A stretch of 39,477 nucleotides of DNA from Lachnospiraceae bacterium (GTDB lineage: Bacteria > Bacillota > Clostridia > Lachnospirales > Lachnospiraceae), in NCBI GenBank assembly GCA_017550925.1, contig JAFZNL010000293.1:1-39477 (forward strand). Direction: 5' to 3'. Both the position numbers and the translations under genes were made by a program. The notes beneath the pieces are model-generated. The model was not told the origin of the DNA and ran no database searches. It saw only the letters and a program-made list of their open reading frames with translations. Below are positions 20,605 through 39,477 of the stretch, piece by piece; position 1 is the stretch's first letter, and every line of letters begins with the position of its first letter.

Positions 20605-20643
20605 GTTAGAAGCAACTGTTTTTGTTACAGGATTTTGCCAAGA

Positions 20644-20678: not shown

Positions 20679-20700
20679 CATATTACAACTTTATTTCTAA

Positions 20701-21507: not shown

Positions 21508-21524
21508 GATCTGTTTCCCTCCTG

Positions 21525-23357: not shown

Positions 23358-23481
23358 GATTTACCTCCTAAGATCTTTGAGCAGCTCGCCCTCGTTTTTC
23401 ACCGGTATTGCCGGTTTTATATCAACCCCTGCCTTCATCTGCTCAATTGCAAGGGAATAATATACAATTTCACGAAAAATT

Positions 23482-24258: not shown

Positions 24259-24279
24259 AGGGGAAATGCCTCCTTGCGG

Positions 24280-24319
24280 AAAATTCCGGCTTGGCGGCCT
24301 AAGTCAGGCCGCCTGCCGG
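24280..24319 (-). terminator. GC-rich hairpin after the second pilin gene (candidate leaky terminator or stabiliser)
   Basis: CCGGC-TT-GGCGGCCT (24286-24300), loop AAGTC, AGGCCGCC-T-GCCGG (24306-24319). This gives 13 bp, followed on the minus strand by AATTTT only. Confidence 0.5.
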
Positions 24320-24329
24320 GAAACGTTTT

Positions 24330-24728
24330 TTACCAAGTACCTGTGCAGGAAAGAGATCCGTCACCGGTGGTATCTGTTACAGTAACAGTGTAGGTGCTGT
24401 TCTTGTAAGCTTTGGATTTAACCTTTACAGAACCCCAGGAAGCGAAGTACTCGTTCAGACCTGCGGTGATACCTGCGGAACCAGTATTAACGCCGCCTGA
24501 GCTGAAGGTAAGGGTATCGCCATCAGAGATGGAATCGATATAATCTTCATCTGTGCAGGATGTCATAACTGCGTTCTTCAGGTTATCAGCATTGTCCTCA
24601 TCCGCGGACTTACGGCTCTTCTCAACATACTTGATGTACTGAGGAGCAAGAACTCCGATCAGGATAGCCATAATAGCGATAACGATGATAAGCTCTACCA
24701 ACGAGAAACCTTTGTTTGTCTTTTTCAT
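24330..24728 (-). CDS. pilA: type IV pilin (132 aa), probable major pilin
   Basis: MKKTNKG|FSLVELIIVIAIMAILIGVLAPQYIKYVEKSRKSADEDN... ATG 24728 has AAGGAGAGG upstream, and the track start 24767 is probably too early. There are two Cys residues (TSCTDEDY and LSCTGTW). A strong hairpin follows. Confidence 0.9.
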   Translation of the reverse strand: MKKTNKGFSLVELIIVIAIMAILIGVLAPQYIKYVEKSRKSADEDNADNLKNAVMTSCTDEDYIDSISDGDTLTFSSGGVNTGSAGITAGLNEYFASWGSVKVKSKAYKNSTYTVTVTDTTGDGSLSCTGTW

Positions 24729-24807
24729 TTTTTTCCTCTCCTTTTGTGTTTGTTTTTTATTTCTCATACAGTCCGCACCCCTATTCTACGGACCGTCATG
24801 ATTCAAT

Positions 24808-25209
24808 TTAACTCCAGTCACCGAAGATATCGAAATCTCCTTTTGCCGTCTTCGTAAAGCTGACTGTATAAGTCTGTGTCTTATACTTTTTGGATTTTGG
24901 CTTTTTTTGCGCCAGATTATCCGAATAGAATACGCCCAAAGCACTCATGATCGCCGCATTGCCGGAAGTGATGCCGCCGGAAGAAAACGTGATGGTGTCT
25001 CCGTCGTTGATGCTGTCGAAGTATTCTTCGTCCGAGATCATGACAAACGCCGATTCAAAAATCGATCCGGCTATATCCTCGTCAGCGGATATCCTCGATT
25101 TCTCCACATATTTGATGTACTGCGGTGCTAACACCCCGATCAGAATCGCGAGGATCGCAACCACAATGATCAGCTCCACCAGCGAAAAACCTTTGTTCGC
25201 GTGCTTCAT
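24808..25209 (-). CDS. pilA: type IV pilin paralogue (133 aa)
   Basis: MKHANKG|FSLVELIIVVAILAILIGVLAPQYIKYVEKSRISADEDI... with an AAAGGAGG RBS. It is homologous to the downstream pilin over its whole length and has no Cys. Confidence 0.9.
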   Translation of the reverse strand: MKHANKGFSLVELIIVVAILAILIGVLAPQYIKYVEKSRISADEDIAGSIFESAFVMISDEEYFDSINDGDTITFSSGGITSGNAAIMSALGVFYSDNLAQKKPKSKKYKTQTYTVSFTKTAKGDFDIFGDWS

Positions 25210-25221
25210 ACGCGCCTCCTT

Positions 25222-26445
25222 TTACAGGTTATCAAGACCTGTGTACATAGCGGCCATAGGAGCCATAACCGCACCGATGATAGTTCCGCAGATCGCAGCC
25301 AGGATAATGATCATCAAAGGCTCCAACGCTGCCATCAACGCTTCAGTTGCCGTTTCCACTTCTTCCTCATAATAATCAGCCAGTGTATCCAGCATGCTCT
25401 CGATATTACCGGTTTCCTCACCGATCCTTACCATATGATAAACCATCGGCGGGAACAGTCCGGATCTTTCGAGCGGCTGTGACAGGGGAACACCCTGCAT
25501 AACGTCTGTTCTTGCATCCCTCATGGATTCCTGATAAAACTTATTTCCCATTGTCTCGGCTACGATTTCCACTGCCTCCGGCATCGAGATGCCTGCTGCC
25601 AGCATGGTGGAAAGGTTCCTTGCAAATTTCGCAGAGTTCTGCTTGGTTGTCAGGTCTGCAAGAAGCGGGATCTTGATCGCTGCCCTCGCGATCAGTCTCT
25701 CACCTGTCGCCGTCTTGCTGAAATATCTGATACCGATCACCAATACGATCAGTACAGCAAGCAAGATATACCATCTTGACTTTACAAAGTTCGATGCCGC
25801 CACAACTGCCAGCGTGATCTTCGGCATGTCAATTTCCATATCCGCGAACATATCCATGAAAGTCGGCACGATGTAGGTCAGCATGACGATAACGACCACG
25901 ACTGCCACGATCATAACCATGATGGGATATACCATTGCTTTTTTGATCAATCCCTGGATCTTGGCGGATTTTTCAAACTGAACTGCCATACGCTCAAACG
26001 CGATATCCAATGAACCTGAAGCTTCACCTGCTTCTACCATGTGGATCAGCAGTTTCGGGAATACGTCCGGCCTCTGTGCCATGGAACCGGCAAGGGATTC
26101 ACCCTTCTGCACTCCGAGGTAGCAGTCTTCCAAACCGCTCTTCAGCGTCGGGTTTTCTGTCTGTTCTGTCAACATCCTCATGGATTCAAGGATTGTGACA
26201 CCGGCACGGTGCATACTTACGAACTGCCTGCAGAACAGGGACATGTCGCGCACGGGAACTTTCTTTTTAAAGAGGCTTCCCATATCCAGGTCTTTGTCCA
26301 GGATACCCGCTTCCCTTACTTCAGTCGGCGTCAACCCCTGGCGCTTGAGCGCGTCCGATGCCTTCTGCAGGGAATCGGCTTCAATGGTGCCGTTTGAACT
26401 CTTTCCCGTTTTCTGGTCTACCGCGGTATACTTAAATGTTGCCAA
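25222..26445 (-). CDS. pilC: type IV pilus platform protein PilC (GspF family)
   Basis: 407 aa with a TTG start and AGGAGGG 7 nt upstream. It shows the duplicated GspF-type organisation: MATFKYTAVDQKTGKSSNGTIEADS..., two cytoplasmic domains each followed by TM segments, and the typical C-terminus EPLMIIILAAICGTIIGAVMAPMAAMY. Confidence 0.92.
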   Translation of the reverse strand: MATFKYTAVDQKTGKSSNGTIEADSLQKASDALKRQGLTPTEVREAGILDKDLDMGSLFKKKVPVRDMSLFCRQFVSMHRAGVTILESMRMLTEQTENPTLKSGLEDCYLGVQKGESLAGSMAQRPDVFPKLLIHMVEAGEASGSLDIAFERMAVQFEKSAKIQGLIKKAMVYPIMVMIVAVVVVIVMLTYIVPTFMDMFADMEIDMPKITLAVVAASNFVKSRWYILLAVLIVLVIGIRYFSKTATGERLIARAAIKIPLLADLTTKQNSAKFARNLSTMLAAGISMPEAVEIVAETMGNKFYQESMRDARTDVMQGVPLSQPLERSGLFPPMVYHMVRIGEETGNIESMLDTLADYYEEEVETATEALMAALEPLMIIILAAICGTIIGAVMAPMAAMYTGLDNL

Positions 26446-26491
26446 CTTGCTGCCCTCCTGATTCTTTCATTCTTCCTCATATCTTATATCG

Positions 26492-28243
26492 TCAAGCTTC
26501 AAACGATACTTTAATCATCTCACTGACAGATGTGATTCCCTCCATGACATACCGGGTTGCGCTCATTCTCAAAGTGCTCATCCCCTGTGTCAAAGCCACA
26601 TCTTTGATTTGGTCCGCGTCGCCGCCCTTAGCGATGATCCTCTTTACCTCGTTGGACACTTCCATGATCTCGTATGTACCGATACGCCCTCTGTATCCGC
26701 TGTTATCACAGTTTGAACATCCAACCGGTTCGTAAATCTCCACTTCCTCGCCGGGCTGCTTGCCGAGAAGTTCGAGTTCATCCTCATCCGCCAGGCGTTT
26801 GCGCTTACATTTCGGGCAAAGCCTTCTGACAAGTCGCTGTGCGATGATACCCACAACGGAATCGGCAATCAGATAAGGTTCAATTCCCATATCTTCCAAA
26901 CGGGATACTGTACTTGCCGCCGAGTTAGTATGCAGGGTACTTACCACCAAGTGGCCCGTAATCGATGCCTGTACCGCAATGGATGCCGTTTCCGTATCAC
27001 GGATCTCACCGATCATGATAATGTCCGGGTCCTGACGGAGAATGGAACGGAGCGCCGACGCAAAGGTCAACCCCGCTTTTACGTTGGTTTGTACCTGATT
27101 GATACCAGCTACGTTAGCCTCGACAGGGTCTTCTACTGTGATGATATTGACATCTTCGGTATTCAACTCGGAAAGTGCCGTATATAGGGTTGTGGACTTT
27201 CCGGAACCGGTAGGCCCCGTAACCAGGATAATTCCGTGCGGGTTCTTTAATATATGGGTAAATACTTTACGTTCTTCATCATTAAATCCGAGTTCCGAAA
27301 TATCCCTGGTCAAGTTTCCTTTGTTCGTGATACGCATTACGGTCTTTTCACCGTATACGGTGGGAAGGATGGAAACACGGATATCATATTCTCTGTTATC
27401 TACGAAGGTTGTGATACGACCGTCCTGGGGTTTTCTCTTTTCGGAGATATCCATTCCGCCGACAACCTTCAGACGGGCTACGATAGCGGGAAGCAACTTA
27501 ATATTATAGGTAGCTCTTTCAAAGAGCGCCCCGTCGATCCTGTATCTGACGCGGACGGATTTCTCAAGCGCTTCAATATGGATATCGGAAGTTCTCTGGC
27601 GTACCGCCTGCTCCAACATGGAATTCACCAGCTGTACGATGGGGGAGTTGTTGACATCGTCGTTTACCATCTTGTCGATGTCTTCCTCTGCAAAGAGGTC
27701 TGCTCTCTCCGCCTCGTAATCCTTTGCTGCCTTGGAGGCTTCGGCGTTACCGTAATATTTGTCGATCGCCAGCATGATCTCGCTGGGCGTTGCGACCACC
27801 GGCTGGATCATACGGTTACATACCATCGAAAGGTCGTCTACCGCGAGCAGGTCCATGGGGTCCGCCATAGCCATCAGGATGATATTGATGTTTCTGTCGT
27901 CATAGGAATAAGGGATGGCGGTGTACTTTTTTAATATATCGATGTCGAACATCGCGATCAGGTCGCTCGGTATGCTCACATCTGACATATTTGCCCTGTC
28001 ATATCCCAGCTGGCGGCTCAGTGCGTTTGCCATTGCATCGTCGGTGATGAATCCATCCTCGATCAGCACCTCGCCAAGCCTCTTCTTTTTCTGCTGCTGG
28101 ATCGCTAAAGCTTCGTCTAACTTCTCCTGGGTGATGACGCCTTCATTTAAGAGCACATCACCGATCCTCAGTTTCCTTCTTCCGGCTAAACTCATCCGCT
28201 TTTCCCTGCCGTTTCCTTGCTTTTTTCCCGATTCTAAGCACAC
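26492..28243 (-). CDS. pilB: type IV pilus assembly ATPase PilB (GspE family) with an MshEN-type N-terminal domain
   Basis: Walker A GPTGSGKSTTLYTAL, Walker B DPDIIMIGEIRD, His box TGHLVVSTLHTN and tetra-Cys CPKCKRK...CSNCDNSGYRGR. The start is either GTG 28243 (AGGA 4 nt upstream) or ATG 28195 (MSLAGRRKL...). Confidence 0.95.
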   Translation of the reverse strand: MCLESGKKQGNGREKRMSLAGRRKLRIGDVLLNEGVITQEKLDEALAIQQQKKKRLGEVLIEDGFITDDAMANALSRQLGYDRANMSDVSIPSDLIAMFDIDILKKYTAIPYSYDDRNINIILMAMADPMDLLAVDDLSMVCNRMIQPVVATPSEIMLAIDKYYGNAEASKAAKDYEAERADLFAEEDIDKMVNDDVNNSPIVQLVNSMLEQAVRQRTSDIHIEALEKSVRVRYRIDGALFERATYNIKLLPAIVARLKVVGGMDISEKRKPQDGRITTFVDNREYDIRVSILPTVYGEKTVMRITNKGNLTRDISELGFNDEERKVFTHILKNPHGIILVTGPTGSGKSTTLYTALSELNTEDVNIITVEDPVEANVAGINQVQTNVKAGLTFASALRSILRQDPDIIMIGEIRDTETASIAVQASITGHLVVSTLHTNSAASTVSRLEDMGIEPYLIADSVVGIIAQRLVRRLCPKCKRKRLADEDELELLGKQPGEEVEIYEPVGCSNCDNSGYRGRIGTYEIMEVSNEVKRIIAKGGDADQIKDVALTQGMSTLRMSATRYVMEGITSVSEMIKVSFEA

Positions 28244-28335
28244 TATTCCTAAGAAATAGCTACTTGTGAAAATAATCTTAACAACATTTGAAGAAAATGT
28301 AAACCCTTATCTGTAAAAAAACGCCATTATATCGC

Positions 28336-28363
28336 ATAATATTTCTCTTCCTGTTTTGTGCAA
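28336..28363 (-). promoter_or_regulatory. candidate sigma-A promoter of the pilus operon
   Basis: On the minus strand, TTGCAC (28363-28358), a 16-nt spacer, then TATTAT (28341-28336), in a 355-nt AT-rich divergent intergenic region. Pattern match only. Confidence 0.3.
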
Positions 28364-28372
28364 CATGCACAA
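28356..28372. promoter_or_regulatory. perfect 7-3-7 palindrome (candidate operator)
   Basis: TTGTGCA-ACA-TGCACAA. It overlaps the putative -35 of the pilB promoter. Confidence 0.4.
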
Positions 28373-28474
28373 TTTTAGAGGCGTTTTATTTATATTTTAG
28401 ATAGATTTTACATTTTTAAGAATGCCTTCAAGCATACTTAATAGAAACTTCTTCTTTCTCCGGACCTGTTTCTT

Positions 28475-28483
28475 TGCTATAAT
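28475..28483 (+). promoter_or_regulatory. extended -10 element TGCTATAAT upstream of the first YfhO-like gene
   Basis: TGCTATAAT lies 116 nt upstream of ATG 28599. The same 9-mer, in a similar context, is found upstream of the second gene. Confidence 0.35.
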
Positions 28484-28598
28484 ACGTAATAATCTGATAG
28501 ACCAGCCGGGATTTCCATTATAATTCGAGTGATAGTGTAAAGTACGATATGAAAATCCGGAGATGATATACTTGTGATCAGTTTACGGAGCACCTCCT

Positions 28599-31500
28599 AT
28601 GAAACAGCCTGCAGCCAGCCCCCACACAAAACAAAAACAGAACGCTTCCGGAAAAAAGGATTTTTCCGTACAGCCCGGCATTCGGTTTTATTATGTCTTC
28701 TCTTTTCTGTTTCCGGTTTGCATGCTGATGATCATCTTCTATATGAAAGGAATCCTCCCTTTCGGAAACAACAGTCTGTTTATCGGTACCACGGCAGAAA
28801 AGGCTTTCTCTGTTTTACATGATTACGTCCGTCTCGTACAGAGCGGCCAATTCTCGCTCCTGCATCCGGCAGGACTGGCCGGCATGGATTTCGGCGATGC
28901 CTTCTGGCTTTACCTGTCAAGCCCCTTTACCCTGGTTCTCGGTTTTTTCACGCCTGACACTGCCTTCCGCGGACTTTCCGTCCTGACAGTTTTACGTCTT
29001 GGCTTCGCAGGACTTTGCATGGCACATTATCTGTATCGCCGCGCCGGCCAGGAGCATTTCGCAAAGCAGGGATATCTGCTGATGCTGTTTTCTGTCTCCT
29101 ATCCCCTGTCAGGTGCACTTCTTACTGCACAAACCGATTATCGCTTTCTGGACTGTTTCATGCTGCTGCCTCTCCTCATGCTGCTTTATGAGGGTCTCAT
29201 CTGTAAACAGCAAAAAAAGGGACTGATCATCCTTTTGACGGTCCTGCTGATCGATAACTGTTATATCGGAACGGTCTGCGCCGTCATCCTGGTCCTGGAT
29301 TACTGCATTATTAAAAGGGCCCTTCTTGCGCAATCGGAAAAGAAAAACACTTCGCTGTCCCTTCTATCTTCGGTGGCGATTTCACTTCTGCTGTCATCCG
29401 TCTCCGTCATTCCGGGGGTTCTTTCCTTTTATAAGAATATCCTCAGCCATACGGCATGGCCCGGAACAGACCCGGCGCATGCCTGGAGCAGCATCCCGGG
29501 CCGTTTCCTGCCATTTTGCGACCAGTCCTTCTTATCCGCAGGCAGCAGCGGACTAAACCTTTACTGCGGCATACTGCCCCTGATCTTTTTTCTCCTGTAT
29601 TTTGTCTGCAAGAAAAAAAACACAGGCACGGAAAACAATGGCTTTGCGCGTTTCCGGACTGCCTGTTTTCTCTTACTGCTCATCACGGTCAGCAATATCC
29701 CCGCCCTCGGCAGGGCGTTTGCACTCCGTTCAGATTACACGGATACTTTCGCCCCCCTGTCCTTCATCATCATATTTTATATCATCAGCAAAGGCGCCGA
29801 GGCAACGAATTCCCTGAAGTCAATCCGTCTTGCGGCTTTTATCCCGGTTGCTCTCCTTCCGTGCATGTATTTCATTTATTCGCTGGCAGTCACCGGAGAT
29901 TTCAAACGTTCTTCCCTTACATCCCTGACCGTATGCCTCATCCTGCATACGCTGTTCGTCCTGGCCCTGCGGATCAAGCCGGTCAGGCCGGACCTTCTCG
30001 AGCTTTTCATTCTGCTCCTCTTTCTCGGAGAACTGTTTTTAAATACAGAGCATATCCTGTTTCAATGTCAAAATTATACGGACTATTACTCCGAACAGCT
30101 CGAGACTTTGAAAAGCCCGGATCAGGATCTCCTCGATCCGCTGTCGGATTTCGGTCTCTCACTTCCCGTTCCTTCCGAGGACCTGCAGCTTAGAGTCCCT
30201 GCATTTTGCCTCCTTCCCGGAGAATACAAAAATCCGCAGGAAGGCAGTTTCGAATATGAAACCATCAACCGCATCGCACGCTCCCTTTCCTCCGCGAGCG
30301 ATCTGCTGACCCGCGAAAAAGCTGATATTTCCATCCCTTCCACGGATAAAGTCCGGGTAAAAGAATCCGGCGATGATTTCTTTACCGTATTTTGTCCCAA
30401 CTCTGAAAAGGACGTCTTCTATATCGGCGCATCCGTCGTCCCCGAGGAAACCGGCCATTTCATTTTATATACAGACCATCCGGAATACATCGGAGAAACA
30501 GCCGGCGGACAGGAACTCGTGCGCGGAATAAGGCTGAACCGCTACGGAAATAACCGGATCGTTTTTCCTTCCATCTGCTGCCGCCTGCATACAGATGCTT
30601 TGGAAGAACTGATCTCTTCACTCAGCAATATGGCGATCACGTCCCCCCAGGCAGCCCTTTTCGGATATCAGATCGCCATACCGGACAACCGGTCACAAGA
30701 AACCACCTCCCTCATCGTTCCGGTTTCTGAAAAGCAGTGCAGCATCCGGATCGGCAATGACCGCGCCACAACAGTTCCCGGCCCTGATCATTCCGCCGTG
30801 GTATCCGTCCCTTCCGGCGCGCAGACTGTGACCGTTCGGAAAAATATGCGGATCCCTTCCTTCGCCATCCTTTTATCACTGGCCGTCATGGCCTGCTGCC
30901 TGATATCACGGCAAAAAAAGATCCGCCTGACAATGATCAAAAATGCCGCACAAACTCTTATCGATCATTTAACCGCCCATCGCGGCCTGATCCTTTCGTT
31001 TGTGCTGCCGCTTAGCATGCTTTCCGTCGCCTGCATCTGCTGTGGTGACATGCCCTTCGGGGACCGGTTCTTTTTCAAGGGAGACGGATGCGGAGAAACG
31101 ATCCCGGCCCTCTTCCAATACAAAGCCGGCCTCGAAAACCGAAGCCTTCTCTACAGCCTTCTCATCGGCGGCGGCAGCAATTTATTCTACAGCAGGCCCA
31201 ATGCCCTTGCTTTTTTGTGGACGCTCCTTCCTTCGAACGCACACCTGATCAGCTTTGCCTCGATCATCCTCATGATCAAGATCAGCCTGTGCGGCACGGC
31301 CATGCATGTATATCTCACCCACCGCTCTTTCGGGAAGCGCCTTGAAAAAAACGATATTTTTACGCTTGTGCTCAGCTGCTCCTGGGCGCTTTGCTCCTAC
31401 AGCATCAATTACCGGCATTATCTTCTGTGGACCGATATCCTGTTTCTGTTCCCCCTGCTTCTGATCGCGCAGGAACATATGCTCGCCTCAGAAGAATCCA

Positions 31501-33488
31501 TTCCAAAAAAATCCGTTCCCCAGAAATCGGCCCCCTATGTCCTGCTGCTGTTTTTATGCATCTGGGCAAGCCCCATGCTTTCCATTTACATTTGCCTGTT
31601 TCTGCTTCTCCGGTTTTTTACCTTTCAGCACGGGTCAGCCAAAAGACTTCTTCGGAATCTGACCTGGTTCGGCCTTGCTTCCGTTCTTTCTGCCGGAATG
31701 GCCTTTCGTGTCTTATATGTCAATCTCCTTTCAAGGAGCGTCGGCGCATACCAGTACCGCGACAATGTCAAACCGAGCCTGTTTGTATTCTATCAAAGTT
31801 ATTTAAAATCCCTGCGTCAGCTGTTTCTTTTGCCTGATGCTGTATCCATCACCACGGAAAACGGTGCGATCAATCTGTATTTCGGCGTCTTTTTGTTTAC
31901 GCTTGCCCTCACCGCGGTGATCACGCAGAAAAAAAACGCTTACAGGATCTTCCGGCTTTCATGCATTGCCTTTCTTTTCTTTGCGAGCAACAACGATCTT
32001 CTCAGTTATCTCCTGAACGGCATGCATTATCAGGTCAAAGTACCGAACCGATATTCCTTTATAATGATCTTCCTGCTTCTTGACCTTGCCGCCAATGCGC
32101 CGGAGTGTATTACCTACCTTTCCAAAAAGAAACTGGTGCTCACGATATCTGTCCTTGCAGGCATTTTTCTCTTATCGTCATTCTCCGGCACGCCCCCCAT
32201 TCCCATCGAGGCCTTTTTCCTTTCATTGGCCTGCATTGTAATTTCCGTCCTGTTGATCCGGGCCGGTCGGCATGCTGCTGATTCCGGCAGATCAGGCATC
32301 CGGGGACTTTTCTGCTTTTTCTGCTGCTTAGAGCTTCTTTTTCAATGCACGTATTTTCTCATGGAAGAGTCGCCCGGAGACGGTCTCTCCATTCCGGACA
32401 CCATGTCAGCCACCGAATTCTTACAGCAGCAGGCCGGCATTGATAACTCCTTTACGCGGGTAAACTTTTATACGATCCCCTGCTACAACCTGAATATGGT
32501 CAACCGTGTTTCGAGCATCAACGAGTTTGACAGTTTTATCACAGAAAACCAGTATAACTATGCAGCTTCCCTCGGCCTGTACGCAACGCCGAACCTGATC
32601 TACTCTCCGACAGTGGGCAATCCGTTTATCAATGCCGTCACCGATACGCGCTATTTTCTTGTCAATTCCCAAACGGAAGCCGGGGACCATGATTTTTCAA
32701 ACCTGCAGCTGATCGGGCAGCGGAATTCATACTATTTTCTGGAAAATGACCGCTGCCTTTCTGCCGGCTTTTTCATTCCTTCTGACACACTTCAGCGGCA
32801 GGATGATATCACCAGCGCTTACACCCTATCCAACGTCATCTGCTCCGCTTTCAACGGCAGCCGTCCCATTTACACTGACACGATCGAGTTATCAGACAAA
32901 AGCACCCCTTCCTCAGAAACGGCCGCCCCTTCCGATAACTACTACATCTCCACGCGGGAAACAGACGGCGAATGGTATGAAACCAAGCTCCACTTTACGC
33001 CCACAAAAAGCGGCCACTGGTATTTGAAGACTCTCTGTTTCTATGATATCGGAACCCTTGAAAAAGATGCGCCCTGCGAAATCACGATCCGGACCAGGAC
33101 AAAAGACAACATGACCGTCACCTGCTTTGATGAGGATGCCTTTTCCGCTTTCTATGAAAATGCATCGCAGCATGTCCTGTCCATAACTGATTGCAACGAC
33201 AGTTCCCTGTCAGGTTCCATTACCTGCCCGGACGACGGCGGCATCCTGCTTTCCATCCCCTACGACGACGGATGGCAGGTTTCCCTTGACGGCATATCCG
33301 TCCGGGCTCAGCAATTTGTCAATGGTGCTATGATGATCCCCGTTACCAAAGGAACACACACACTGTCCATGACTTTTCGCCCGATTGGCCTTACCGAATC
33401 CATGATCGTCACCGGTTTGTTCTGGATGGCTTTCCTGATATGGATGACAGCCGGTTTCTTTCTTCGCAAAAAGAGACAAGCCCCATAA
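28599..33488 (+). CDS. 1629-aa polytopic membrane protein made of two tandem YfhO-family (GT-C-like) modules
   Basis: Module 1 covers about 28599-30930 and module 2 covers 30933-33488. Each module has a YfhO-like N-terminus (TM1, then a PFG motif: GILPFGNNSLF and GDMPFGDRFFF), many TMs and an extracytoplasmic beta-rich domain. Each ends with the typical motif plus anchor TM: VVSVPSGAQTVTVRKNMRIPSFAILLSLAVMACCLI for module 1 and LLSIPYDDGWQVSLDGISVRAQQFVNGAMMIPVTKGTHTLSMTFRPIGL plus TM for module 2. Confidence 0.8.
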   Translation: MKQPAASPHTKQKQNASGKKDFSVQPGIRFYYVFSFLFPVCMLMIIFYMKGILPFGNNSLFIGTTAEKAFSVLHDYVRLVQSGQFSLLHPAGLAGMDFGDAFWLYLSSPFTLVLGFFTPDTAFRGLSVLTVLRLGFAGLCMAHYLYRRAGQEHFAKQGYLLMLFSVSYPLSGALLTAQTDYRFLDCFMLLPLLMLLYEGLICKQQKKGLIILLTVLLIDNCYIGTVCAVILVLDYCIIKRALLAQSEKKNTSLSLLSSVAISLLLSSVSVIPGVLSFYKNILSHTAWPGTDPAHAWSSIPGRFLPFCDQSFLSAGSSGLNLYCGILPLIFFLLYFVCKKKNTGTENNGFARFRTACFLLLLITVSNIPALGRAFALRSDYTDTFAPLSFIIIFYIISKGAEATNSLKSIRLAAFIPVALLPCMYFIYSLAVTGDFKRSSLTSLTVCLILHTLFVLALRIKPVRPDLLELFILLLFLGELFLNTEHILFQCQNYTDYYSEQLETLKSPDQDLLDPLSDFGLSLPVPSEDLQLRVPAFCLLPGEYKNPQEGSFEYETINRIARSLSSASDLLTREKADISIPSTDKVRVKESGDDFFTVFCPNSEKDVFYIGASVVPEETGHFILYTDHPEYIGETAGGQELVRGIRLNRYGNNRIVFPSICCRLHTDALEELISSLSNMAITSPQAALFGYQIAIPDNRSQETTSLIVPVSEKQCSIRIGNDRATTVPGPDHSAVVSVPSGAQTVTVRKNMRIPSFAILLSLAVMACCLISRQKKIRLTMIKNAAQTLIDHLTAHRGLILSFVLPLSMLSVACICCGDMPFGDRFFFKGDGCGETIPALFQYKAGLENRSLLYSLLIGGGSNLFYSRPNALAFLWTLLPSNAHLISFASIILMIKISLCGTAMHVYLTHRSFGKRLEKNDIFTLVLSCSWALCSYSINYRHYLLWTDILFLFPLLLIAQEHMLASEESIPKKSVPQKSAPYVLLLFLCIWASPMLSIYICLFLLLRFFTFQHGSAKRLLRNLTWFGLASVLSAGMAFRVLYVNLLSRSVGAYQYRDNVKPSLFVFYQSYLKSLRQLFLLPDAVSITTENGAINLYFGVFLFTLALTAVITQKKNAYRIFRLSCIAFLFFASNNDLLSYLLNGMHYQVKVPNRYSFIMIFLLLDLAANAPECITYLSKKKLVLTISVLAGIFLLSSFSGTPPIPIEAFFLSLACIVISVLLIRAGRHAADSGRSGIRGLFCFFCCLELLFQCTYFLMEESPGDGLSIPDTMSATEFLQQQAGIDNSFTRVNFYTIPCYNLNMVNRVSSINEFDSFITENQYNYAASLGLYATPNLIYSPTVGNPFINAVTDTRYFLVNSQTEAGDHDFSNLQLIGQRNSYYFLENDRCLSAGFFIPSDTLQRQDDITSAYTLSNVICSAFNGSRPIYTDTIELSDKSTPSSETAAPSDNYYISTRETDGEWYETKLHFTPTKSGHWYLKTLCFYDIGTLEKDAPCEITIRTRTKDNMTVTCFDEDAFSAFYENASQHVLSITDCNDSSLSGSITCPDDGGILLSIPYDDGWQVSLDGISVRAQQFVNGAMMIPVTKGTHTLSMTFRPIGLTESMIVTGLFWMAFLIWMTAGFFLRKKRQAP

Positions 33489-33551
33489 GCAGGGCATAAA
33501 ACATCACATATTATCATCATGGCAGATCCGATGGAATTTCCCGTGTATTTC

Positions 33552-33560
33552 TGCTATAAT
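33552..33560 (+). promoter_or_regulatory. extended -10 element TGCTATAAT upstream of the second YfhO-like gene
   Basis: TGCTATAAT lies 33 nt upstream of ATG 33593, which has a GGGAG RBS. Confidence 0.35.
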
Positions 33561-33592
33561 AAGGATTATTATGCAGATCACGGGAGCTGACT

Positions 33593-36500
33593 ATGAAACA
33601 AGCAAAGATCAATATCCTGCCGAAATTCCACATGGGAGAATGGGATGGCGACATCCCGCGCAAAGACGCCCCCTTCTATCCGGGAAACAACAAATATCCG
33701 GCCTTTCTTCTCAATAACAGCCTGTATATCCTTTCCTTTCTGATCCCGTTTATCATCCTGCTCGGATATATGATCTATTTCGGTTTTTCTCCCTTCGGTC
33801 CGAATTCCATGATCATCATGGACGGAACGCTTACCAATCTGCCGCTTTTGCAGCAGACAAATGCAACGCTTCATACAGGACAGTACGCTTTCTATCAGAT
33901 GGCCGGAAAAGGCACGCCGGAACTGCTCTCCACCTGGGCCTTTTTCTTCACGAGTCCGTTTACGCTTCTGACTCTTTTGTTTGATCAGTCCGCTGCGATA
34001 CCGCTTTTGTCCATATTCAATATCCTTCGGATCTCCATGGCAGGTCCGCTTCTTTTGTATTTCCTGACCCACAGGCCCCTGGGCAGGCAAGGCAGCAAAT
34101 ACGACCTTTCGCTTCTCATCTTTACCATCGGTTATGCCCTTTCCAGCTTTGCGCTGTTTCAGCACAGCGATTTTATGTATATGGATCACTTCATGCTGTT
34201 TCCGCTGTTTTTGCTCGGACTGGAAAAACTGATGGCCGGCGGCAGCAGGAAACTATTTTGCATCATCAGTGCTGCCTGTCTGTTTTCCCAGTTTAATCTC
34301 GGCGCCACAATGCTTCTGTTCGCACTGTTTTATTTTCTGTTTCGCACGGACGAACCCTTCCCCATTGCCCTCAGGCAGCTTGGAAACCTGGTACTCTCCG
34401 GTCTGATCGCCTTAGGGCTGTCGGCAGTGACCGTCATTCCGGGATTCGCAGGGCTTTCCCACATTCTCTCAGACAGATGTCCCAACGCCGTGTTTGTATT
34501 TTCCCCGTTGGACCTTGTATTGATGCAGATGTTCCGTCATGCACCCTCTTTTTATACTACCAGCTTTTCCGGTAGCAATGTCTATTGCGGACTTCTTGTC
34601 ATCTTCCTGGCCATCCTTCATTTTACCGACAAAACATTCCAGATCAGAAAACGGATCCGGGATTTGCTGCTTTGGTTCATCCTTTTACTTGCCATCACAC
34701 AGTCGCAGATCATCTATCTGTCTGCCATGGGGCATTCCGTCACCAGCTCCTTCCTGCCCCATGCATTTTTGTTTGTCGGCCTGCTGCTGCTCTATGCCTT
34801 TGAAAGTCTTCCGAATATCCGCAAGCAGCATGTATTATGGCTTCTGTTTGCACTGCTTCTGCCCTTCGGCCTGATCGTACTGGCCATGAAGTTTTCCGTT
34901 GGGAAACCTGACTTTTCCTCTGCACAGCAGTCTTTCGGACTCCTTGCCTGCTTTGCCGTCCTGCTTGTACTATACCGGATTGGCAGCATCCGCAGGAAAA
35001 CCTTTTACGGCCTTGTTGTTTCCATAACAGTGCTTGAACTGTGTATATCCGCTTTCTTTACCATGTCCTTCACTGCAGAGGAAGGCGAGCTCTGCGAAGA
35101 AATAACCGCATCTTCTCTCTCCCCCGCTGACAGCGCATCTAATGGCCTTGGCGAGATCCATAAAGACAGGGACGGCTACTTAAACAGCAGGTACGGCCTT
35201 TCATCGCGTTATGATGTCAACCCTTTTACCACCGCAACCACCTTGTCTCATTTATCAGGCGAAACTGCCCTCCGTTATGATCCCCTGTCAGACTCCATGG
35301 CAGGCTTGAAACAATTGTATCTGCCGCAGGGTTCCTCTCCCGACCTGCTGCCAAACGAAACGCAGTACCGCAAAGCCGGCATGTCCTTTGACGGCAGCTA
35401 TGACATCTACGAAAACGACGACGCATTCCCGTTCTTCTACACCGTCCTCTCTACTGAGCAGGATTATGAAACCATGCAGAAAAGCTGCACTGACTGGGCG
35501 CAGTCCCAAAATGCCATCACACACTTTTTGGGAGCCGATCCTTCTGCAGAGCTGTTTTCACATGCTAAGCTGAAAACCGAACTATCCTCAAAGGATGATC
35601 TGTCCATCAAACACCTCGGCCACAATATTTTTACTGCTACCGAACCGGAAGGAGAAAACGCAAAAGACCGTTATCAGGTCAAGATCCAGTTTACGCCGCA
35701 GGAAAGCGGCGACGTGTACCTCTATCTGGATAAACCGGTACACTACGGCGATGCAGTCGCAGGAGACATCGAGAAGTATTTTTACTTTTTTGAATCCTCC
35801 GGCTTTACCGACCACACGATTTGGGTACAGGGATATTTATTCCACCCGGAAATCCTGCATGACCTGTCTCAGAAACTTTGCGATAACGAAATACGTCAGA
35901 TCGATTTTCATCCTTTTTCCTTCCAGATCACGACGGATTACCCGCAGGACAGATATCTGATCAGTGCCCTGCCGGCGGACAATCTGTTTTCCGTGAAGCT
36001 GGACGGAAAAAAAGCTGCCGTCTGCGCAGTTGGTGATCACCAGGCCGTTTTCCTTCCTGCCGGACAACACAAAATCGAGTATTCCATCCCCGTCCTGCCG
36101 CTTGCAGCCGGCTTGCTAATCACGCTGCTCACGCTTGTTTTATCGCATGCTTTGGCACATTTTGCTGCCCTGCAGGCAAGGAGCGCAGCGATCAGGCTCC
36201 GGGCTGTATCCGGGAAGATTGCAGACCTGATCACGGATAACCGCATCTATCTGCTTTCCTTTTTCCTGCCCTTTTTCATCCTGCTGTTGGCTGCGCTCTT
36301 CGGAAGCAATACCCCCTTCGGTTACTACAGCATCTTAAACGGCGATGCCTGCTCTGCCGAGATCCCTGCAGTTTATGACAGCGTTACTCTGATCCGCACA
36401 GGTCTGATCTCACACTTTTTCCAAAGCGGCGGCGGCATCGTACAATCCATCAGCAACCCGGCCGGCTTTATGCGGGCCCTGTATCTGCTGTTCCCGGAAG

Positions 36501-38737
36501 AGGATTATGTAAACCTGATCACCTTCCTTGTACTGCTGCGTCTTTCCCTGTGTTCCTTTACGCTGGTATGGTATCTGACACACCGCAGCATCAAGGCTCC
36601 GGCTGATAAGCATGACTATAAGCTACTTTTGGCGGGACTGACCTACAGCCTCTGCAACTATATGCTGATCATGATGGTATATTTTTCCTGGCTGCAGACT
36701 TTCGTTTTACTGCCCCTCATCCTCTGGGGAATGGATGAACTGATGGTCAAAAAGAAAAAGAGAGCCTACATTGCCCTGCTCTCCCTTTCCTTTTTCCTGC
36801 ATTATTACATGACCATGTTTATCTGCTTTTATCTTGTGCTGCGGTTTTTTACTTACCATTTCCGTTCATGGAAGCAGTTTCTGTCATCCGGCATCCGGTT
36901 TGCCCTTTGCAGCCTGGCTACCGGTGCCCTTGCCTTTTCGATCCTGTACCAGGGCCTTGCTTCTCTCTCCGGCAGCACCTATGGAGAAAAAGACGCCACC
37001 TTCACCGCTTCCTACTGGTTTAACGGTTTTCCCTACCTGTTCCAAAAACAGTCCGTATTTGCCGATGCCGCTGCCGTCTCCTGGAACGAAGGCGATGCCA
37101 GCCTTTACTTCGGGCTGCTGCAGCTGATGCTCCTTATGATCTTCATTCTGGCTAAGCAGATCCGCATATCCGAGAAGATACGCACGCTGTTTCCCATTGT
37201 CTTTTTATATATCACGTTTAACCAGTCTGTTTTGAATTTCATCTTCAACGGGCTGCACTATCAAAACGGCGTACCCAACCGTTTCGCCTTTCTGCTGCCC
37301 CTGTGCTGCGCCATCGTCTCCTATGACGCATTCCGGATCCTGCCAAAGCAGCCAAAGCGGAAGATGCTGATTAGCGTCATAGCCGTTTTCCTGCTGCTTG
37401 GCATCAGCGATCTTCATATCTATGAAACACCGGTATCCCGTCTTTCGCTGTTTGCGACCCTCGGGCTTTTGCTGATCTACGGCATTCTCATGCTCACCCT
37501 GCAGGGCTCTTATCAAAAGCGAAAACTGCTCCCGCAGCTTTTGCTTTTGTTTGTCATTGCGGAAATGAGCGCGAATGCCTATTTTGAATTTCACGCAAAT
37601 CAGGCAAATCCCGCAGGCATCACCTATGAGCAGGAAGCCGTCGATATGCTGAACGACAAGCTGGATTTTGACAAGTCCCTGGACAAAGTGGCAGTCATTA
37701 CCCCAACCAATAAAAACTTCGGCTCCGTTACGAAGGCTTTTACCATGCAGCTCTTCGCCGGCGGAAGCATCACTCCCTATCAGATCCGAATGACCGACTA
37801 CAGCGGCATGAATCCGGAGGCAAACGGCATGCTGGTGGACTGCACCAATACGCTGATCGGAAATGCCGTTGCCGGCAACAGGTATATCGTGATCCACGAC
37901 CGGTCTACGCTGCAAAACGCAGGCGATCTGAAATACTATACGCCTGTTGCCCAGACCTCACACAGCATCATTTTGAAAAACGATCTATGTCTGCCTTTCG
38001 GCTACTATCTGCCCTCTTCCCTTTCCTTCTCCGAAGAAGATAGGATCCGAAAATCCGACTTTTGGGACAGGCTGTCCGAAACCGTCACAGGGGAAACCGT
38101 GATGAGTGCTCATGACCTCCCTCTTTTCAACCCCGCTGATCCGGATCAAAGGGAGTATTACAGCCAGGAGCCCATCGATACTTACAGTGACACCCTGGCG
38201 ATTCACTTTGTCACGCCGCAGGATGGCGACCTTTATCTGAACACGGAGTTTTTCCAGTATATGGATGAAGTGCCGAAAGACGCAGAAGTTCATTTCACAT
38301 CTATCCGTACCCGGGACGGCGAAGCGGATAACCTTAACGGAATCAGCTATTATCTGCTCGACAGGGATGCACTTGACAGATTATGCGAAAAAATCAATGA
38401 AAACGCATTTGTGACAGAATCCTTTGATAACAATCATGTGAACGGATCCATCGATATGCCAGAAGACGGAATCCTGAACTTTTCGATTCCCTATACGGAT
38501 CAGTGGAATGTATTTGTTGACGGACAGCCTGCCCCGGCCGAGCCTTTTGCACAGGCCTTTTTGAGCGTGCAGGTTCCGAAAGGACACCATTCCATATCCC
38601 TGTCATACAATCTGAAATTCTGGACCTGGCCCATGACGCTGACACTGCTCTGCTGGATCTTATTCATCACTGCCTGCATCATTTCCGGCCACAGCCGCCT
38701 TTTCCCCCGGCAGATACAAAAGGCCGATCAGCAGTAA
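33593..38737 (+). CDS. 1714-aa polytopic membrane protein made of two tandem YfhO-family (GT-C-like) modules
   Basis: Module 1 covers about 33593-36150 (N-terminus YILSFLIPFIILLGYMIYFGFSPFGPNSMIIMDG; end LFSVKLDGKKAAVCAVGDHQAVFLPAGQHKIEYSIPVLPLAAGLLITLLTLVLS). Module 2 covers about 36240-38737 (N-terminus IYLLSFFLPFFILLLAALFGSNTPFGYYSILNGDA; end ILNFSIPYTDQWNVFVDGQPAPAEPFAQAFLSVQVPKGHHSISLSYNLKFWTWPMTLTLLCWILFI). It is collinear with the upstream gene, e.g. NGLHYQNGVPNRFAF versus NGMHYQVKVPNRYSF. Confidence 0.8.
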   Translation: MKQAKINILPKFHMGEWDGDIPRKDAPFYPGNNKYPAFLLNNSLYILSFLIPFIILLGYMIYFGFSPFGPNSMIIMDGTLTNLPLLQQTNATLHTGQYAFYQMAGKGTPELLSTWAFFFTSPFTLLTLLFDQSAAIPLLSIFNILRISMAGPLLLYFLTHRPLGRQGSKYDLSLLIFTIGYALSSFALFQHSDFMYMDHFMLFPLFLLGLEKLMAGGSRKLFCIISAACLFSQFNLGATMLLFALFYFLFRTDEPFPIALRQLGNLVLSGLIALGLSAVTVIPGFAGLSHILSDRCPNAVFVFSPLDLVLMQMFRHAPSFYTTSFSGSNVYCGLLVIFLAILHFTDKTFQIRKRIRDLLLWFILLLAITQSQIIYLSAMGHSVTSSFLPHAFLFVGLLLLYAFESLPNIRKQHVLWLLFALLLPFGLIVLAMKFSVGKPDFSSAQQSFGLLACFAVLLVLYRIGSIRRKTFYGLVVSITVLELCISAFFTMSFTAEEGELCEEITASSLSPADSASNGLGEIHKDRDGYLNSRYGLSSRYDVNPFTTATTLSHLSGETALRYDPLSDSMAGLKQLYLPQGSSPDLLPNETQYRKAGMSFDGSYDIYENDDAFPFFYTVLSTEQDYETMQKSCTDWAQSQNAITHFLGADPSAELFSHAKLKTELSSKDDLSIKHLGHNIFTATEPEGENAKDRYQVKIQFTPQESGDVYLYLDKPVHYGDAVAGDIEKYFYFFESSGFTDHTIWVQGYLFHPEILHDLSQKLCDNEIRQIDFHPFSFQITTDYPQDRYLISALPADNLFSVKLDGKKAAVCAVGDHQAVFLPAGQHKIEYSIPVLPLAAGLLITLLTLVLSHALAHFAALQARSAAIRLRAVSGKIADLITDNRIYLLSFFLPFFILLLAALFGSNTPFGYYSILNGDACSAEIPAVYDSVTLIRTGLISHFFQSGGGIVQSISNPAGFMRALYLLFPEEDYVNLITFLVLLRLSLCSFTLVWYLTHRSIKAPADKHDYKLLLAGLTYSLCNYMLIMMVYFSWLQTFVLLPLILWGMDELMVKKKKRAYIALLSLSFFLHYYMTMFICFYLVLRFFTYHFRSWKQFLSSGIRFALCSLATGALAFSILYQGLASLSGSTYGEKDATFTASYWFNGFPYLFQKQSVFADAAAVSWNEGDASLYFGLLQLMLLMIFILAKQIRISEKIRTLFPIVFLYITFNQSVLNFIFNGLHYQNGVPNRFAFLLPLCCAIVSYDAFRILPKQPKRKMLISVIAVFLLLGISDLHIYETPVSRLSLFATLGLLLIYGILMLTLQGSYQKRKLLPQLLLLFVIAEMSANAYFEFHANQANPAGITYEQEAVDMLNDKLDFDKSLDKVAVITPTNKNFGSVTKAFTMQLFAGGSITPYQIRMTDYSGMNPEANGMLVDCTNTLIGNAVAGNRYIVIHDRSTLQNAGDLKYYTPVAQTSHSIILKNDLCLPFGYYLPSSLSFSEEDRIRKSDFWDRLSETVTGETVMSAHDLPLFNPADPDQREYYSQEPIDTYSDTLAIHFVTPQDGDLYLNTEFFQYMDEVPKDAEVHFTSIRTRDGEADNLNGISYYLLDRDALDRLCEKINENAFVTESFDNNHVNGSIDMPEDGILNFSIPYTDQWNVFVDGQPAPAEPFAQAFLSVQVPKGHHSISLSYNLKFWTWPMTLTLLCWILFITACIISGHSRLFPRQIQKADQQ

Positions 38738-39477
38738 CCCGGCAGCCTTGATCACGTTTGCTGCCAGAAGGGCAACCGCCATGCCTTCCACAGAATACTT
38801 CGCGGACAGCGGAAATGCCAGAACGCAGAACAAAACCAGATACACGATATTTACATACAACTGGTATTTTTCATGCAGATAACGAAGGATGATAATGCTC
38901 AGGGTCGAAGCCAGAAAATAAAACACCTGCCCTGCATTTGCAAGCAGGAAATACGGTCTGGCCTGCAGATATACATCCGGATAAAAAAGGCGGACGAAGA
39001 TCAGTGAAAAAAGATGACATGCAAGAGATATCAGCACACCGCCGCATGCAGACAGGCACCAGATCCCGAGAAATGCTTTCTTCTTCATCTGATAACCGGT
39101 TTTTGAAAGATAGCCGACGATCACGCCGTCTAACGGAACTGCCGCAAGGGCTACGATCTTTCCCCCAAGGGATGCCACATAAAATACCGTTACGGTTTCT
39201 CCGCCTTTCATATGCTGTAAAATCACACGGTCTCCATGCAGGATCAATGCATTGATCAGATAGGTTCCCGCCAGCACAAAACAGGCGCGGAAGATCTCCC
39301 TGCCCTGCCCGGAAAGACGGAAAACCGGTTTCACAAAGAGTCTGCCCTTCCACAGCACATACAAAACACAGAGGATCTCGCCGCTCAGAAGGCAGGCCAT
39401 CCATGAACGGGTCACCTGATACAGCAAAAGCCCGGCCAGATAACCGGCCGCAAGAAGAATATAAAAGACGCAGAAAA
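38660..39477 (-). CDS. polysaccharide/oligosaccharide flippase-like (MOP/Wzx-type) membrane protein, 3' part (N-terminus outside the window)
   Basis: The frame stays open from 39477 to the stop at 38660, so the track start at TTG 39427 is an artefact of the window edge. It is polytopic, with a pattern typical of the C-terminal half of Wzx-like proteins (TYLINALILHGDRVILQHMKGGETVTVFYVASL...LDGVIVGYLSK...). The family call comes from pattern recall only. Confidence 0.5.
   Translation of the reverse strand, partial: FCVFYILLAAGYLAGLLLYQVTRSWMACLLSGEILCVLYVLWKGRLFVKPVFRLSGQGREIFRACFVLAGTYLINALILHGDRVILQHMKGGETVTVFYVASLGGKIVALAAVPLDGVIVGYLSKTGYQMKKKAFLGIWCLSACGGVLISLACHLFSLIFVRLFYPDVYLQARPYFLLANAGQVFYFLASTLSIIILRYLHEKYQLYVNIVYLVLFCVLAFPLSAKYSVEGMAVALLAANVIKAAGLLLIGLLYLPGEKAAVAGNDAGSDE

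Follow-up and report, generated by a model that had tools for sequence, protein, structure and literature searches.

Do two giant genes, each encoding two copies of a glycosyltransferase-like module, specify four enzymes acting in series, or fewer enzymes assisted by related partners, and what would such proteins modify? The question is raised by G1 and G2, two adjacent genes on contig JAFZNL010000293.1 of a Lachnospiraceae bacterium (assembly GCA_017550925.1); the whole stretch of 39,477 nucleotides analysed is called here the window. Their products belong to the YfhO family, whose members act outside the cell, at the last step of surface glycosylation in Firmicutes, and for which neither a structure nor catalytic residues are established. 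An earlier reading, made without database searches (the original prediction), had described them as four complete modules that could form one multi-step machine. The reading that we consider probable, although well short of certain, is that they represent a family of doubled YfhO proteins in which the C-terminal module (M2) is catalytic and the N-terminal module (M1) is a retained, non-catalytic partner, with a pilus or another variable surface structure as the suggested acceptor.

Two YfhO modules in each protein

The two same-strand open reading frames (ORFs) have exactly the coordinates and the lengths, 1629 and 1714 aa, given in the original prediction, and the four peptides quoted there (GDGCGETIPALFQY, GDACSAEIPAVYDS, LLLRFFTFQHGSAKRLL and LVLRFFTYHFRSWKQFL) are all found in their translations. 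As a whole, G1 matches the Pfam YfhO profile (PF09586, gathering score 28.5 bits) with an E-value of 1.2e-100 and G2 with one of 8.6e-129, in 3-4 stretches. For a search by module, the proteins were cut at the junctions, after aa 785 in G1 and after aa 875 in G2. Each half matches the profile from position 1: G1M1 (aa 1-785) with 138 bits (4.7e-40), G1M2 (aa 786-1629) with 213 bits (8.9e-63), G2M1 (aa 1-875) with 188 bits (3.2e-55) and G2M2 (aa 876-1714) with 260 bits (8.5e-77). The two expected matches per protein are present, those of the N-terminal halves spanning the membrane part alone (profile positions 1-458 and 1-450).

The junctions, where an anchor transmembrane helix (TM) had been said to run straight into the next module, were confirmed in both genes. 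In G1 (nt 30852-31043 overall) the anchor TM at aa 752-770 (nt 30852-30908) is followed by a linker of 26 residues and by the next first helix (TM1) at aa 797-815; in G2 (nt 36086-36301 overall) the anchor TM at aa 832-850 (nt 36086-36142) is followed by 34 residues and by a TM1 at aa 885-903. Since the N-terminus, the linker and the C-terminus of both proteins are all rich in lysine and arginine, the predicted topology is self-consistent: inside, module 1, outside domain, back inside, module 2.

The claim that each ORF holds two complete copies of the YfhO layout stands for the number of modules and needs a caveat as to their completeness. The closing motif, IPYxxGW...DG...GxH, is canonical in both M2 modules, which also have the final anchor helix, and degenerate in the M1 modules, where it reads LIVPVSEKQCSIRIGND in G1 and ALPADNLFSVKLDG...AGQHKI in G2. 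Despite this, the M1 modules keep the beta-rich domain and the anchor helix.

Two modules were modelled by AlphaFold 2 and the models were compared with known structures by Foldseek. The model of G1 aa 1-785 (predicted local distance difference test score 79, predicted template modelling score 0.77) has a beta-rich domain at aa 537-748 and an anchor helix at aa 751-771, and matches EmbC, AftA, ALG9, AftD, STT3, PglB and PIG-U; the model of G2M2 (scores 77 and 0.81) matches AftD, PglB, ArnT, STT3, DPY19 and ALG12, as well as EmbA-EmbB (7bvc). The probabilities reported for the matches to glycosyltransferases of fold C (GT-C) range from 0.97 to 1.00. Both modules are predicted to have the GT-C fold, with a multi-helix core, a first extracytoplasmic loop and then an extracytoplasmic domain. 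A YfhO structure was also sought by sequence in the PDB, and none was found. G1 and G2 are single polypeptides, each composed of two YfhO-family GT-C modules.

Conservation of the doubled architecture

The search for doubled YfhO genes that the original prediction had proposed returned at least 41 colinear doubled homologues, from independent assemblies, and a hidden Markov model (HMM) built from 14 single-module YfhO proteins recognised two modules in 41 out of 41 of these sequences. In a collection of 5.8 billion proteins, G2 retrieved 22 clusters of 1518-1795 aa, the best being 35% identical over 99% of the query; G1 retrieved further clusters, with a best identity of 29% over 97-99%. Alignments with the homologues cover 97-100% of the query. 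An exhaustive phmmer search with G2M1 produced 2937 relatives, and 59 of the best 150 representatives (clusters at 50% identity) are at least 1400 aa long. Where a database name exists, it is "YfhO family protein". The organism-named records are metagenome-assembled genomes of Lachnospiraceae, including Robinsoniella and Butyribacter; the sole record from outside the family is a contig that had been binned as Alistipes, and its match is short and partial.

Because dozens of independent assemblies carry colinear doubled ORFs, the fusion is a conserved architecture, and the original claim of a genuine fusion, as opposed to an assembly chimera, is upheld. The idea that the giant ORFs are artefacts, in which a mis-assembly or a frameshift joins two ordinary YfhO genes, could appeal to one relative with the two modules in separate ORFs, but can be discarded with near certainty, given the uninterrupted colinear ORFs of 1500-1800 aa in so many assemblies, the linker, which is a conserved architectural element, and the exceptional nature of that single break, which resembles a 1-nt indel.

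The relative in question (L032, positions 65-5207) is the closest one to G2, with 63% identity in M1 and 67% in M2. Its two ORFs are 4 nt apart, and the break falls within the anchor helix, in a T-rich run. The contig is 5.4 kb long, with a coverage of 3.8x, and another YfhO C-terminus lies convergent just downstream. The break is most simply, and probably, an indel of 1 nt, either real or due to a sequencing error.

Evolutionary history of the modules

A neighbour-joining tree was built from 344 columns of the membrane core, including all modules and single YfhO proteins, with 100 bootstraps. All C-terminal modules form one clade (bootstrap 70) and all N-terminal modules its sister clade (bootstrap 45), and five subgroups, A to E, recur identically in the two. 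G1 falls in subgroup C, with P0014, P0015, P0016, P0052 and P0053 (bootstrap 70 for M1 and 96 for M2), and G2 in subgroup A, with P0002-P0009 (72 and 96). As the M1 and M2 clades are separate and each contains the same five subgroups, the tree indicates that one old duplication-fusion came first and that the fused gene then split into five or more subgroups.

In none of the 100 bootstraps do modules of G1 and G2 come out as sisters. A recent local tandem duplication from G1 to G2 was ruled out on this ground and by their belonging to different old subgroups; the two genes of the window are juxtaposed old paralogues. The order of events first proposed, an internal duplication followed by a duplication of the whole gene, holds; the second event is old, and was not a local tandem copying.

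Other multi-module forms were seen among the homologues. P0023 (1761 aa) derives from an independent and younger duplication, its halves being each other's closest relatives (bootstrap 100). P0102 (2487 aa) contains, by inspection, three YfhO modules of the PFG type, and in P0109 (2055 aa) a stretch of about 800 aa is repeated almost without change, either because it was duplicated very recently or, possibly, because of an error of assembly. Four proteins of about 1050 aa (P0026, P0030, P0058 and P0059) are single YfhO proteins with an N-terminal GtrA-like domain (PF04138 + PF09586), i.e. flippase-transferase fusions.

The two modules are unequal

Conservation was evaluated on a reference set of 51 single and M2 modules, in which 37 alignment columns are at least 85% conserved. 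G1M2 retains 35 and G2M2 36 of these 37 residues, G2M1 retains 21 and G1M1 13. Two reference columns are 100% conserved: an Asp in the first external loop, eight residues past PFG, and the Arg of the motif NGxHYQxxVPNR. The Asp corresponds to D829 in G1M2, D918 in G2M2 and D77 in G2M1; in G1M1 its place is taken by Thr64, the nearest acidic residue being E67. Several other N-terminal modules keep it, and others have Q, E, N, G, Y or V. The Arg, R1151 in G1M2 and R1230 in G2M2, is lost from every N-terminal module, in all subgroups, and few of these modules have kept the neighbouring Gly and Pro; some retain the His. In G2M1 the Arg, Pro and Gly of this G-x-H-...-P-x-R block (HMM columns 369-379) are lost and the His is kept, whereas the HYQxxVPNR motif is absent from G1M1. 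The proteins of subgroup D (1515-1554 aa) have an N-terminal module from which some 100-135 profile positions are missing at the start, with the entire first helix and loop. D829 and R1151 of G1M2 are invariant in alignment A1, as are D43 and R355 (module numbering of G2M2) in alignment A2, an independent alignment of 27 sequences with eight invariant columns.

From this invariance, and from general knowledge of other GT-C enzymes, we infer that the Asp and the Arg take part in catalysis and in binding of the donor phosphate. The 2018 study of YfhO could not pinpoint catalytic residues (PMC5836110).

The N-terminal modules are not decaying copies. Within subgroups, the identity of the membrane domains is 45.6% for M1 vs 47.6% for M2 in subgroup A, and 37.4 vs 46.2% in subgroup C. 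As the GT-C fold is still modelled for G1M1 and the conservation of M1 is about equal to that of M2, the N-terminal modules are being maintained.

These data can be accommodated in a simple scheme. The C-terminal module would be the catalytic unit, transferring, by analogy with the genetics of single YfhO proteins, a sugar from an undecaprenyl-phosphate-sugar donor to an acceptor at the outer face of the membrane. The N-terminal module would be a retained and probably non-catalytic partner, possibly a covalently tethered pseudo-dimer subunit that binds the acceptor or the donor, and each protein would perform one transfer step, not two. GT-C enzymes working as dimers include EmbA-EmbB and PMT1-PMT2, and PIG-U, one of the structural matches of G1M1, is a subunit of the glycosylphosphatidylinositol transamidase which we take to be non-catalytic and GT-C-like. 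The likeness lies in two GT-C folds acting together; the partners are separate polypeptides in those systems, whereas the G1 and G2 pairs are covalently fused. As far as limited literature searches go, the fused pseudoenzyme-enzyme form of YfhO appears to be undescribed. Such a natural fusion, found in dozens of lineages, offers a comparison which points to the Asp and the Arg as functional residues, and it suggests that YfhO enzymes work as pairs.

The multi-step machine of the original prediction, in which all four modules would be active and form an extracytoplasmic assembly line building or attaching a multi-sugar glycan, agrees poorly with the loss of most family-invariant residues from the N-terminal modules. 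They hold just 13 and 21 of the 37 conserved positions; the Arg of the motif that YfhO proteins conserve best is gone from all of them, and its Gly and Pro from nearly all, the Asp is missing from G1M1, and subgroup D has no first helix and loop at all. To its credit, all four modules score above the Pfam threshold, the modelled G1M1 and G2M2 fold as GT-C, G2M1 keeps the loop Asp, and in Streptococcus mutans glycosylation is affected by each of two paralogous YfhO proteins, PgfM1 and PgfM2 (PMC12041528). On balance we regard an assembly line as improbable.

The donor and the neighbouring membrane protein

The window ends within a gene, convergent with G2, for a membrane protein of which the C-terminal 271 aa are available. 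The fragment has no match in Pfam, NCBIfam or PDB sequence searches. Its homologues are 398-438 aa long at full length and have no Pfam domains; a profile made from 12 of them found no match in the PDB, and 3 of the 12 weakly match Polysacc_synt, below threshold (best E-value 0.0032). The MOP-type flippase placed here by the original prediction is weakened by the lack of any match of the fragment and retains, on its side, these three faint similarities. A 42% identical homologue sits in a sugar operon convergent with a doubled YfhO of 1526 aa (L033-L035), the operon encoding DegT, a thiamine pyrophosphate enzyme, GT2, epimerases, LicD, methyltransferases and a nucleotidyltransferase; for this reason the membrane protein is plausibly part of the same glycosylation system, and it could be a candidate transporter of the lipid-linked sugar. 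Convergent or divergent sugar operons with a GT2 enzyme of 310-329 aa are found in relatives L008, L029 and L033.

An alternative role for the N-terminal module is to supply the donor, translocating or presenting the undecaprenyl-phosphate sugar in place of a GtrA-type flippase. A 2018 study considered that YfhO itself possibly flips the lipid intermediate (PMC5836110), no GtrA-type gene is present within the window, and the GtrA-YfhO fusions described above are a precedent for a donor-supply module at the N-terminus. The analogy is purely positional, though; GT-C folds are not known as flippases, and a separate membrane protein of about 400 aa, weakly Polysacc_synt-like, is available next door as well as in the sugar operons of relatives. 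We judge this role, too, to have a small probability, and prefer to see in M1 a probably non-catalytic partner of M2, which may help in binding.

Linkage to type IV pilus genes

G1 and the type IV pilus operon of the window are transcribed away from each other, and the flanks of the doubled genes were inspected in related loci. In subgroup C the gene is head-to-head with pilB in 5 of 5 loci (the window, L003, L006, L011 and L030), and at L011 the whole operon is syntenic. In subgroup D it is head-to-head with pilB at L016, one gene away from it at L018, two genes away at L015, and 6 kb away at L014, with dprA-comM-pilT-hemN-sigma in between; pilT and a pilB fragment lie within 8 kb at L019, and no pilus gene lies within 8 kb at L017. 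In subgroup B, and at one subgroup A locus, the divergent neighbours of the doubled gene are lepA-hemN-sigma-pilT-comM-dprA, and 4-5 kb separate it from the PilT-type ATPase (L001, L004/5, L008-L010, L012, L013, L021 and L023-L026). At L031, in subgroup E, two N_methyl genes and a 1938-aa protein are found 1-8 kb downstream, the N_methyl, pilin-like genes at a distance of 7-8 kb. Exceptions occur in subgroup A, where the neighbours are sugar genes and an IS110 element at L002 and a NeuB/PglD/epimerase/GT2 operon at L029. A scan of metagenomes added subgroup B loci only.

The linkage recurs in four out of five subfamilies, which are only 21-30% identical, and in several arrangements; the conserved association with pilus genes in relatives, on which the original prediction had made itself depend, is found.

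The two sides of the intergenic region evolve at different rates. In the window, L003, L006 and L011, PilB is 91-93% identical and its divergent neighbour, the doubled YfhO, 29-46%. Between the window and L011, identity decreases from PilB (90-91%), PilC (85%), PilD (83%) and PilM (80%) to the pilins (51-67%), the minor pilins (47-57%) and the doubled YfhO (30%). Judged by these figures, the doubled YfhO evolves like, or faster than, the exposed parts of the pilus, which is the behaviour of a surface-variation locus. So extreme a contrast between two neighbouring genes suggests that alleles are replaced at this locus or that selection diversifies it; the pattern fits both a modification of pilins and a role in wall-glycan serotype.

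Additional GT-C candidates were noted at some of these loci. At L030 a second doubled YfhO (9534-13886, minus strand; 1450 aa, its first module N-terminally degenerate) lies 3.8 kb from the subgroup C gene. At L018 the gene between pilB and the doubled YfhO encodes a weakly PMT_2-like membrane protein of 561 aa (6193-7878, minus strand), another GT-C candidate. Multi-GT-C loci are recurrent.

At L014 (92-8036), L001, L004 and L008, the doubled YfhO is separated from the pilus operon, or from the place where that operon would be expected, by the competence-type genes dprA and comM and a PilT-type ATPase, which hints that the pilus of these bacteria may be a DNA-uptake or retractile one.

Nature of the acceptor

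The recurrent linkage to type IV pili, together with the extreme divergence beside a nearly invariant PilB, suggests as the acceptor a component of the pilus, or else some other surface structure that selection diversifies. This part of the reading is less certain than the division of labour between the modules, and the support for the pilus connection, although real, is circumstantial. Pilins and a cell-wall glycopolymer are given about the same weight as acceptors, each clearly short of an even chance, the remainder going to other targets.

Three known systems provide terms of comparison. The first is CsbB/GtcA/YfhO of Bacillus subtilis, Staphylococcus aureus and Listeria monocytogenes; YfhO enzymes of these three genera glycosylate teichoic acids (PMC5836110, PMC8035078). 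The system shares with all four modules the PF09586 family, and with the doubled proteins the layout (TM1, PFG loop, with its Asp in three of the four modules, multi-helix core, large extracytoplasmic domain, final anchor helix) and the presumed donor, an undecaprenyl-phosphate sugar made by a GT2 enzyme. Known YfhO proteins, however, consist of one module of 800-1000 aa, whereas G1 and G2 have two fused modules, the first of which is degenerate; moreover, the window contains no GT2/GtrA partner, and the neighbours are pilus genes instead of csbB.

The second comparison is with streptococci, where, although the original prediction knew of no described YfhO-dependent protein glycosylation, the YfhO-type enzymes PgfM1/PgfM2 and PgtC2 O-glycosylate adhesins and membrane proteins, on Ser/Thr-rich disordered acceptors (PMC12041528). 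In the Pgf (PgfS, PgfE, PgfM1, PgfM2) and GtrB/PgtC2 systems, GT-C enzymes of the YfhO family act on surface or membrane proteins outside the cell (PMC12041528), and in Pgf two YfhO paralogues cooperate in one locus, a further likeness. PgfM2 and PgfM1 are also the best NCBIfam matches of all four modules, with scores of 42-115 bits vs equivalog cutoffs of 1400 and 1500; by score, then, they are not orthologues, and PgfM1 and PgfM2 are separate proteins. A correspondence of M1 with PgfM2 and of M2 with PgfM1 was ruled out, all four modules scoring higher to PgfM2.

The streptococcal acceptors differ from the pilus proteins of the window, which have no Ser/Thr-rich disordered regions. The "Ser/Thr-rich pilins and giant proteins" proposed at first as targets were not recovered: the Ser+Thr content of the proteins of the pilus operon is 14-21%, and no stretch of 30 aa reaches 45%. 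This argues against a recognition of the streptococcal type, and not against site-specific glycosylation of pilins.

The third system is TfpW, a GT-C arabinosyltransferase that glycosylates group IV pilins in Pseudomonas aeruginosa (bioRxiv 10.1101/2020.04.19.049825; Kus et al. 2008, cited in PMC5836110). Pilin glycosylation by TfpW is strain-variable and protects against pilus-specific phages (bioRxiv 10.1101/2020.04.19.049825, 10.1101/150227). The resemblance consists in a GT-C gene inside a pilus cluster, a polyprenyl-phosphate sugar donor and a strain-variable pilin accessory locus; TfpW is, on the other hand, a single module of another GT-C family, in a Gram-negative organism. As for TfpW, a GT-C gene adjoins the pilus cluster across relatives, being divergent from pilB in the window, L003, L006, L011, L016 and L030; in most other loci the doubled gene is near pilB, pilT or pilin genes. 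A literature search for YfhO in connection with pilins, type IV pili or Lachnospiraceae found no relevant paper.

In its most specific form, which we think unlikely as a whole, the proposal is that doubled YfhO proteins are dedicated O-glycosyltransferases of type IV pilins or of the pilus tip in Gram-positive gut Lachnospiraceae, that the degenerate module has been recruited as a pilin-binding or donor-presenting subunit, and that phage or host pressure drives a rapid, serotype-like diversification. Serotype-like glycosylation of pilins would explain the 29-46% identity beside a PilB conserved at 91-93%, as well as the presence of two different paralogues in one genome. If the pilus were the acceptor, the doubled proteins would form a YfhO-type system of pilin glycosylation with no predecessor in the literature searched, and in these abundant gut commensals they would be candidates for determining adhesion, susceptibility to phages and recognition by the immune system; hypervariability beside a conserved machine is the signature expected of a phage or immune determinant. 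If the acceptor were a wall polymer, the doubled proteins would be a modest architectural variant.

The wall polymer (lipoteichoic or wall teichoic acid, or a secondary wall polysaccharide), with pilus adjacency reduced to an inherited gene order, is a serious competitor, even if we would not bet on it. Inherited synteny is a real alternative because a single bacterial family supplies all the loci. In favour of the wall polymer, the characterised single YfhO proteins mentioned above act on teichoic acids, sugar-nucleotide and GT2 operons typical of wall-glycan loci flank relatives, and the pilins lack Ser/Thr-rich regions. What this competitor explains less well is the persistence of the linkage over subgroups that are 21-30% identical, in at least three arrangements (pilB-, pilT- and pilin-adjacent), while the other flank varies freely, and the order of divergence, which tracks the surface-exposed parts of the pilus from PilB down to the doubled YfhO.

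Several observations weigh against the reading that we prefer, a catalytic M2 assisted by M1 and acting on a pilus or variable surface structure. As to the modules, the support for the monophyly of M1 is modest, and G2M1 and several other N-terminal modules keep the Asp, which leaves room for some activity of M1. We know of no enzymology for any YfhO residue. As to the donor, no GT2 (CsbB/GtrB-type) or GtrA-type domain is present in any ORF of at least 100 aa in the 39-kb window. As to the acceptor, the pilins are devoid of such Ser/Thr-rich disordered regions as serve the streptococcal YfhO systems; all informative loci come from a single bacterial family, so that pilus linkage could be inherited synteny rather than function; at L014 a pilB-dprA-comM-pilT-hemN-sigma series stands beside the doubled gene, and the pilB- and pilT-contexts may share one ancestral block; finally, of the three subgroup A relatives whose flanks could be used, two (L002 and L029) are next to sugar operons or an IS element and not to pilus genes.

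Very large proteins are encoded in the distal part of the pilus operon of the window (1682, 855 and 851 aa, Table 1), and at L031 (16114-21930) the 1938-aa protein is beside N_methyl genes, near a subgroup E doubled YfhO. These giant proteins may be pilus-displayed adhesins and, as such, candidate acceptors.

Organisation of the window

The features of the window are collected in Table 1. Beyond the pilus operon and the DUF5057 gene, topA, codY and flagellar genes are found.

Table 1. Features of the pilus operon, of the doubled YfhO genes and of their surroundings in the window.
Feature	Position	Strand	Description
DUF5057 protein	8245-13293	-	1682 aa
Type IV pilus operon	13362..28243	-	Transcribed away from G1; Pfam
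N_methyl protein	13362-15929	-	855 aa
Family-less protein	16541-19096	-	851 aa
Rest of pilus operon		-	PilM-like, T2SSM-like, two further N_methyl proteins of 496 and 186 aa
Prepilin peptidase (PilD)	23482-24258	-	Pfam
Two pilins	24808-25209 and 24330-24767	-	Pfam
PilC	25222-26445	-	Pfam
PilB	26492-28243	-	Pfam
Divergent intergenic region pilB-G1	28244..28598	.	Extended -10 TGCTATAAT at 28475-28483 (+), 116 nt before G1
G1 (gene 1)	28599..33488	+	1629 aa; doubled YfhO protein, subgroup C (pilB-adjacent type); ORF and translation
G1 module 1 (G1M1)	28599..30908	+	aa 1-770; degenerate GT-C/YfhO module: membrane domain, beta-rich ecto-domain, anchor TM aa 752-770
G1 inter-module linker	30909..30986	+	aa 771-796; Lys+Arg 6 vs Asp+Glu 1; predicted cytoplasmic; between anchor TM and next TM1
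G1 module 2 (G1M2)	30987..33485	+	aa 797-1629; canonical YfhO: PFG-x7-Asp829, NGMHYQVKVPNR (Arg1151), IPYDDGW...LDG
G1-G2 intergenic region	33489..33592	+	Second TGCTATAAT at 33552-33560, 33 nt before G2 start
G2 (gene 2)	33593..38737	+	1714 aa; doubled YfhO protein, subgroup A; ORF and translation
G2 module 1 (G2M1)	33593..36142	+	aa 1-850; partly degenerate YfhO module
G2 inter-module linker	36143..36244	+	aa 851-884; Lys+Arg 5 vs Asp+Glu 2; predicted cytoplasmic
G2 module 2 (G2M2)	36245..38734	+	aa 885-1714; canonical YfhO: Asp918, NGLHYQNGVPNR (Arg1230), IPYTDQW...VDG
Partial membrane protein	38660..39477	-	C-terminal 271 aa; convergent with G2, overlaps G2 3' end by 78 bp

A generic scan for sigma-70 promoters and terminators in the window was uninformative (8 promoter-like sites vs 10.7 expected). 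The window has two copies, and no more, of the extended -10 element TGCTATAAT, one upstream of G1 and one upstream of G2. In 19 of the 21 related loci with enough flank (L001-L031), a TGnTAnAAT element, mostly TGNTATAAT, precedes the start of the doubled gene by 39-122 nt. It is probable that each doubled gene, G2 included, is transcribed from a promoter of its own.

At L011 (14851-22560) and L003 (6788-10726), the subgroup C genes have downstream of them an unusual set of genes, for a split transketolase, a short-chain dehydrogenase, a LuxC-like acyl-CoA reductase, a LuxE-like acyl-protein synthetase, a thioesterase and an AMP-binding enzyme, which suggests a pathway for an acylated or unusual substituent and not a standard sugar-nucleotide operon. 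The 3' end of the doubled YfhO overlaps that of a convergent gene at four loci: by 78 bp in the window (38660-38737), 54 bp at L003 (6788-6841), 74 bp at L030 (5648-5721) and 29 bp at L033 (12135-12163).

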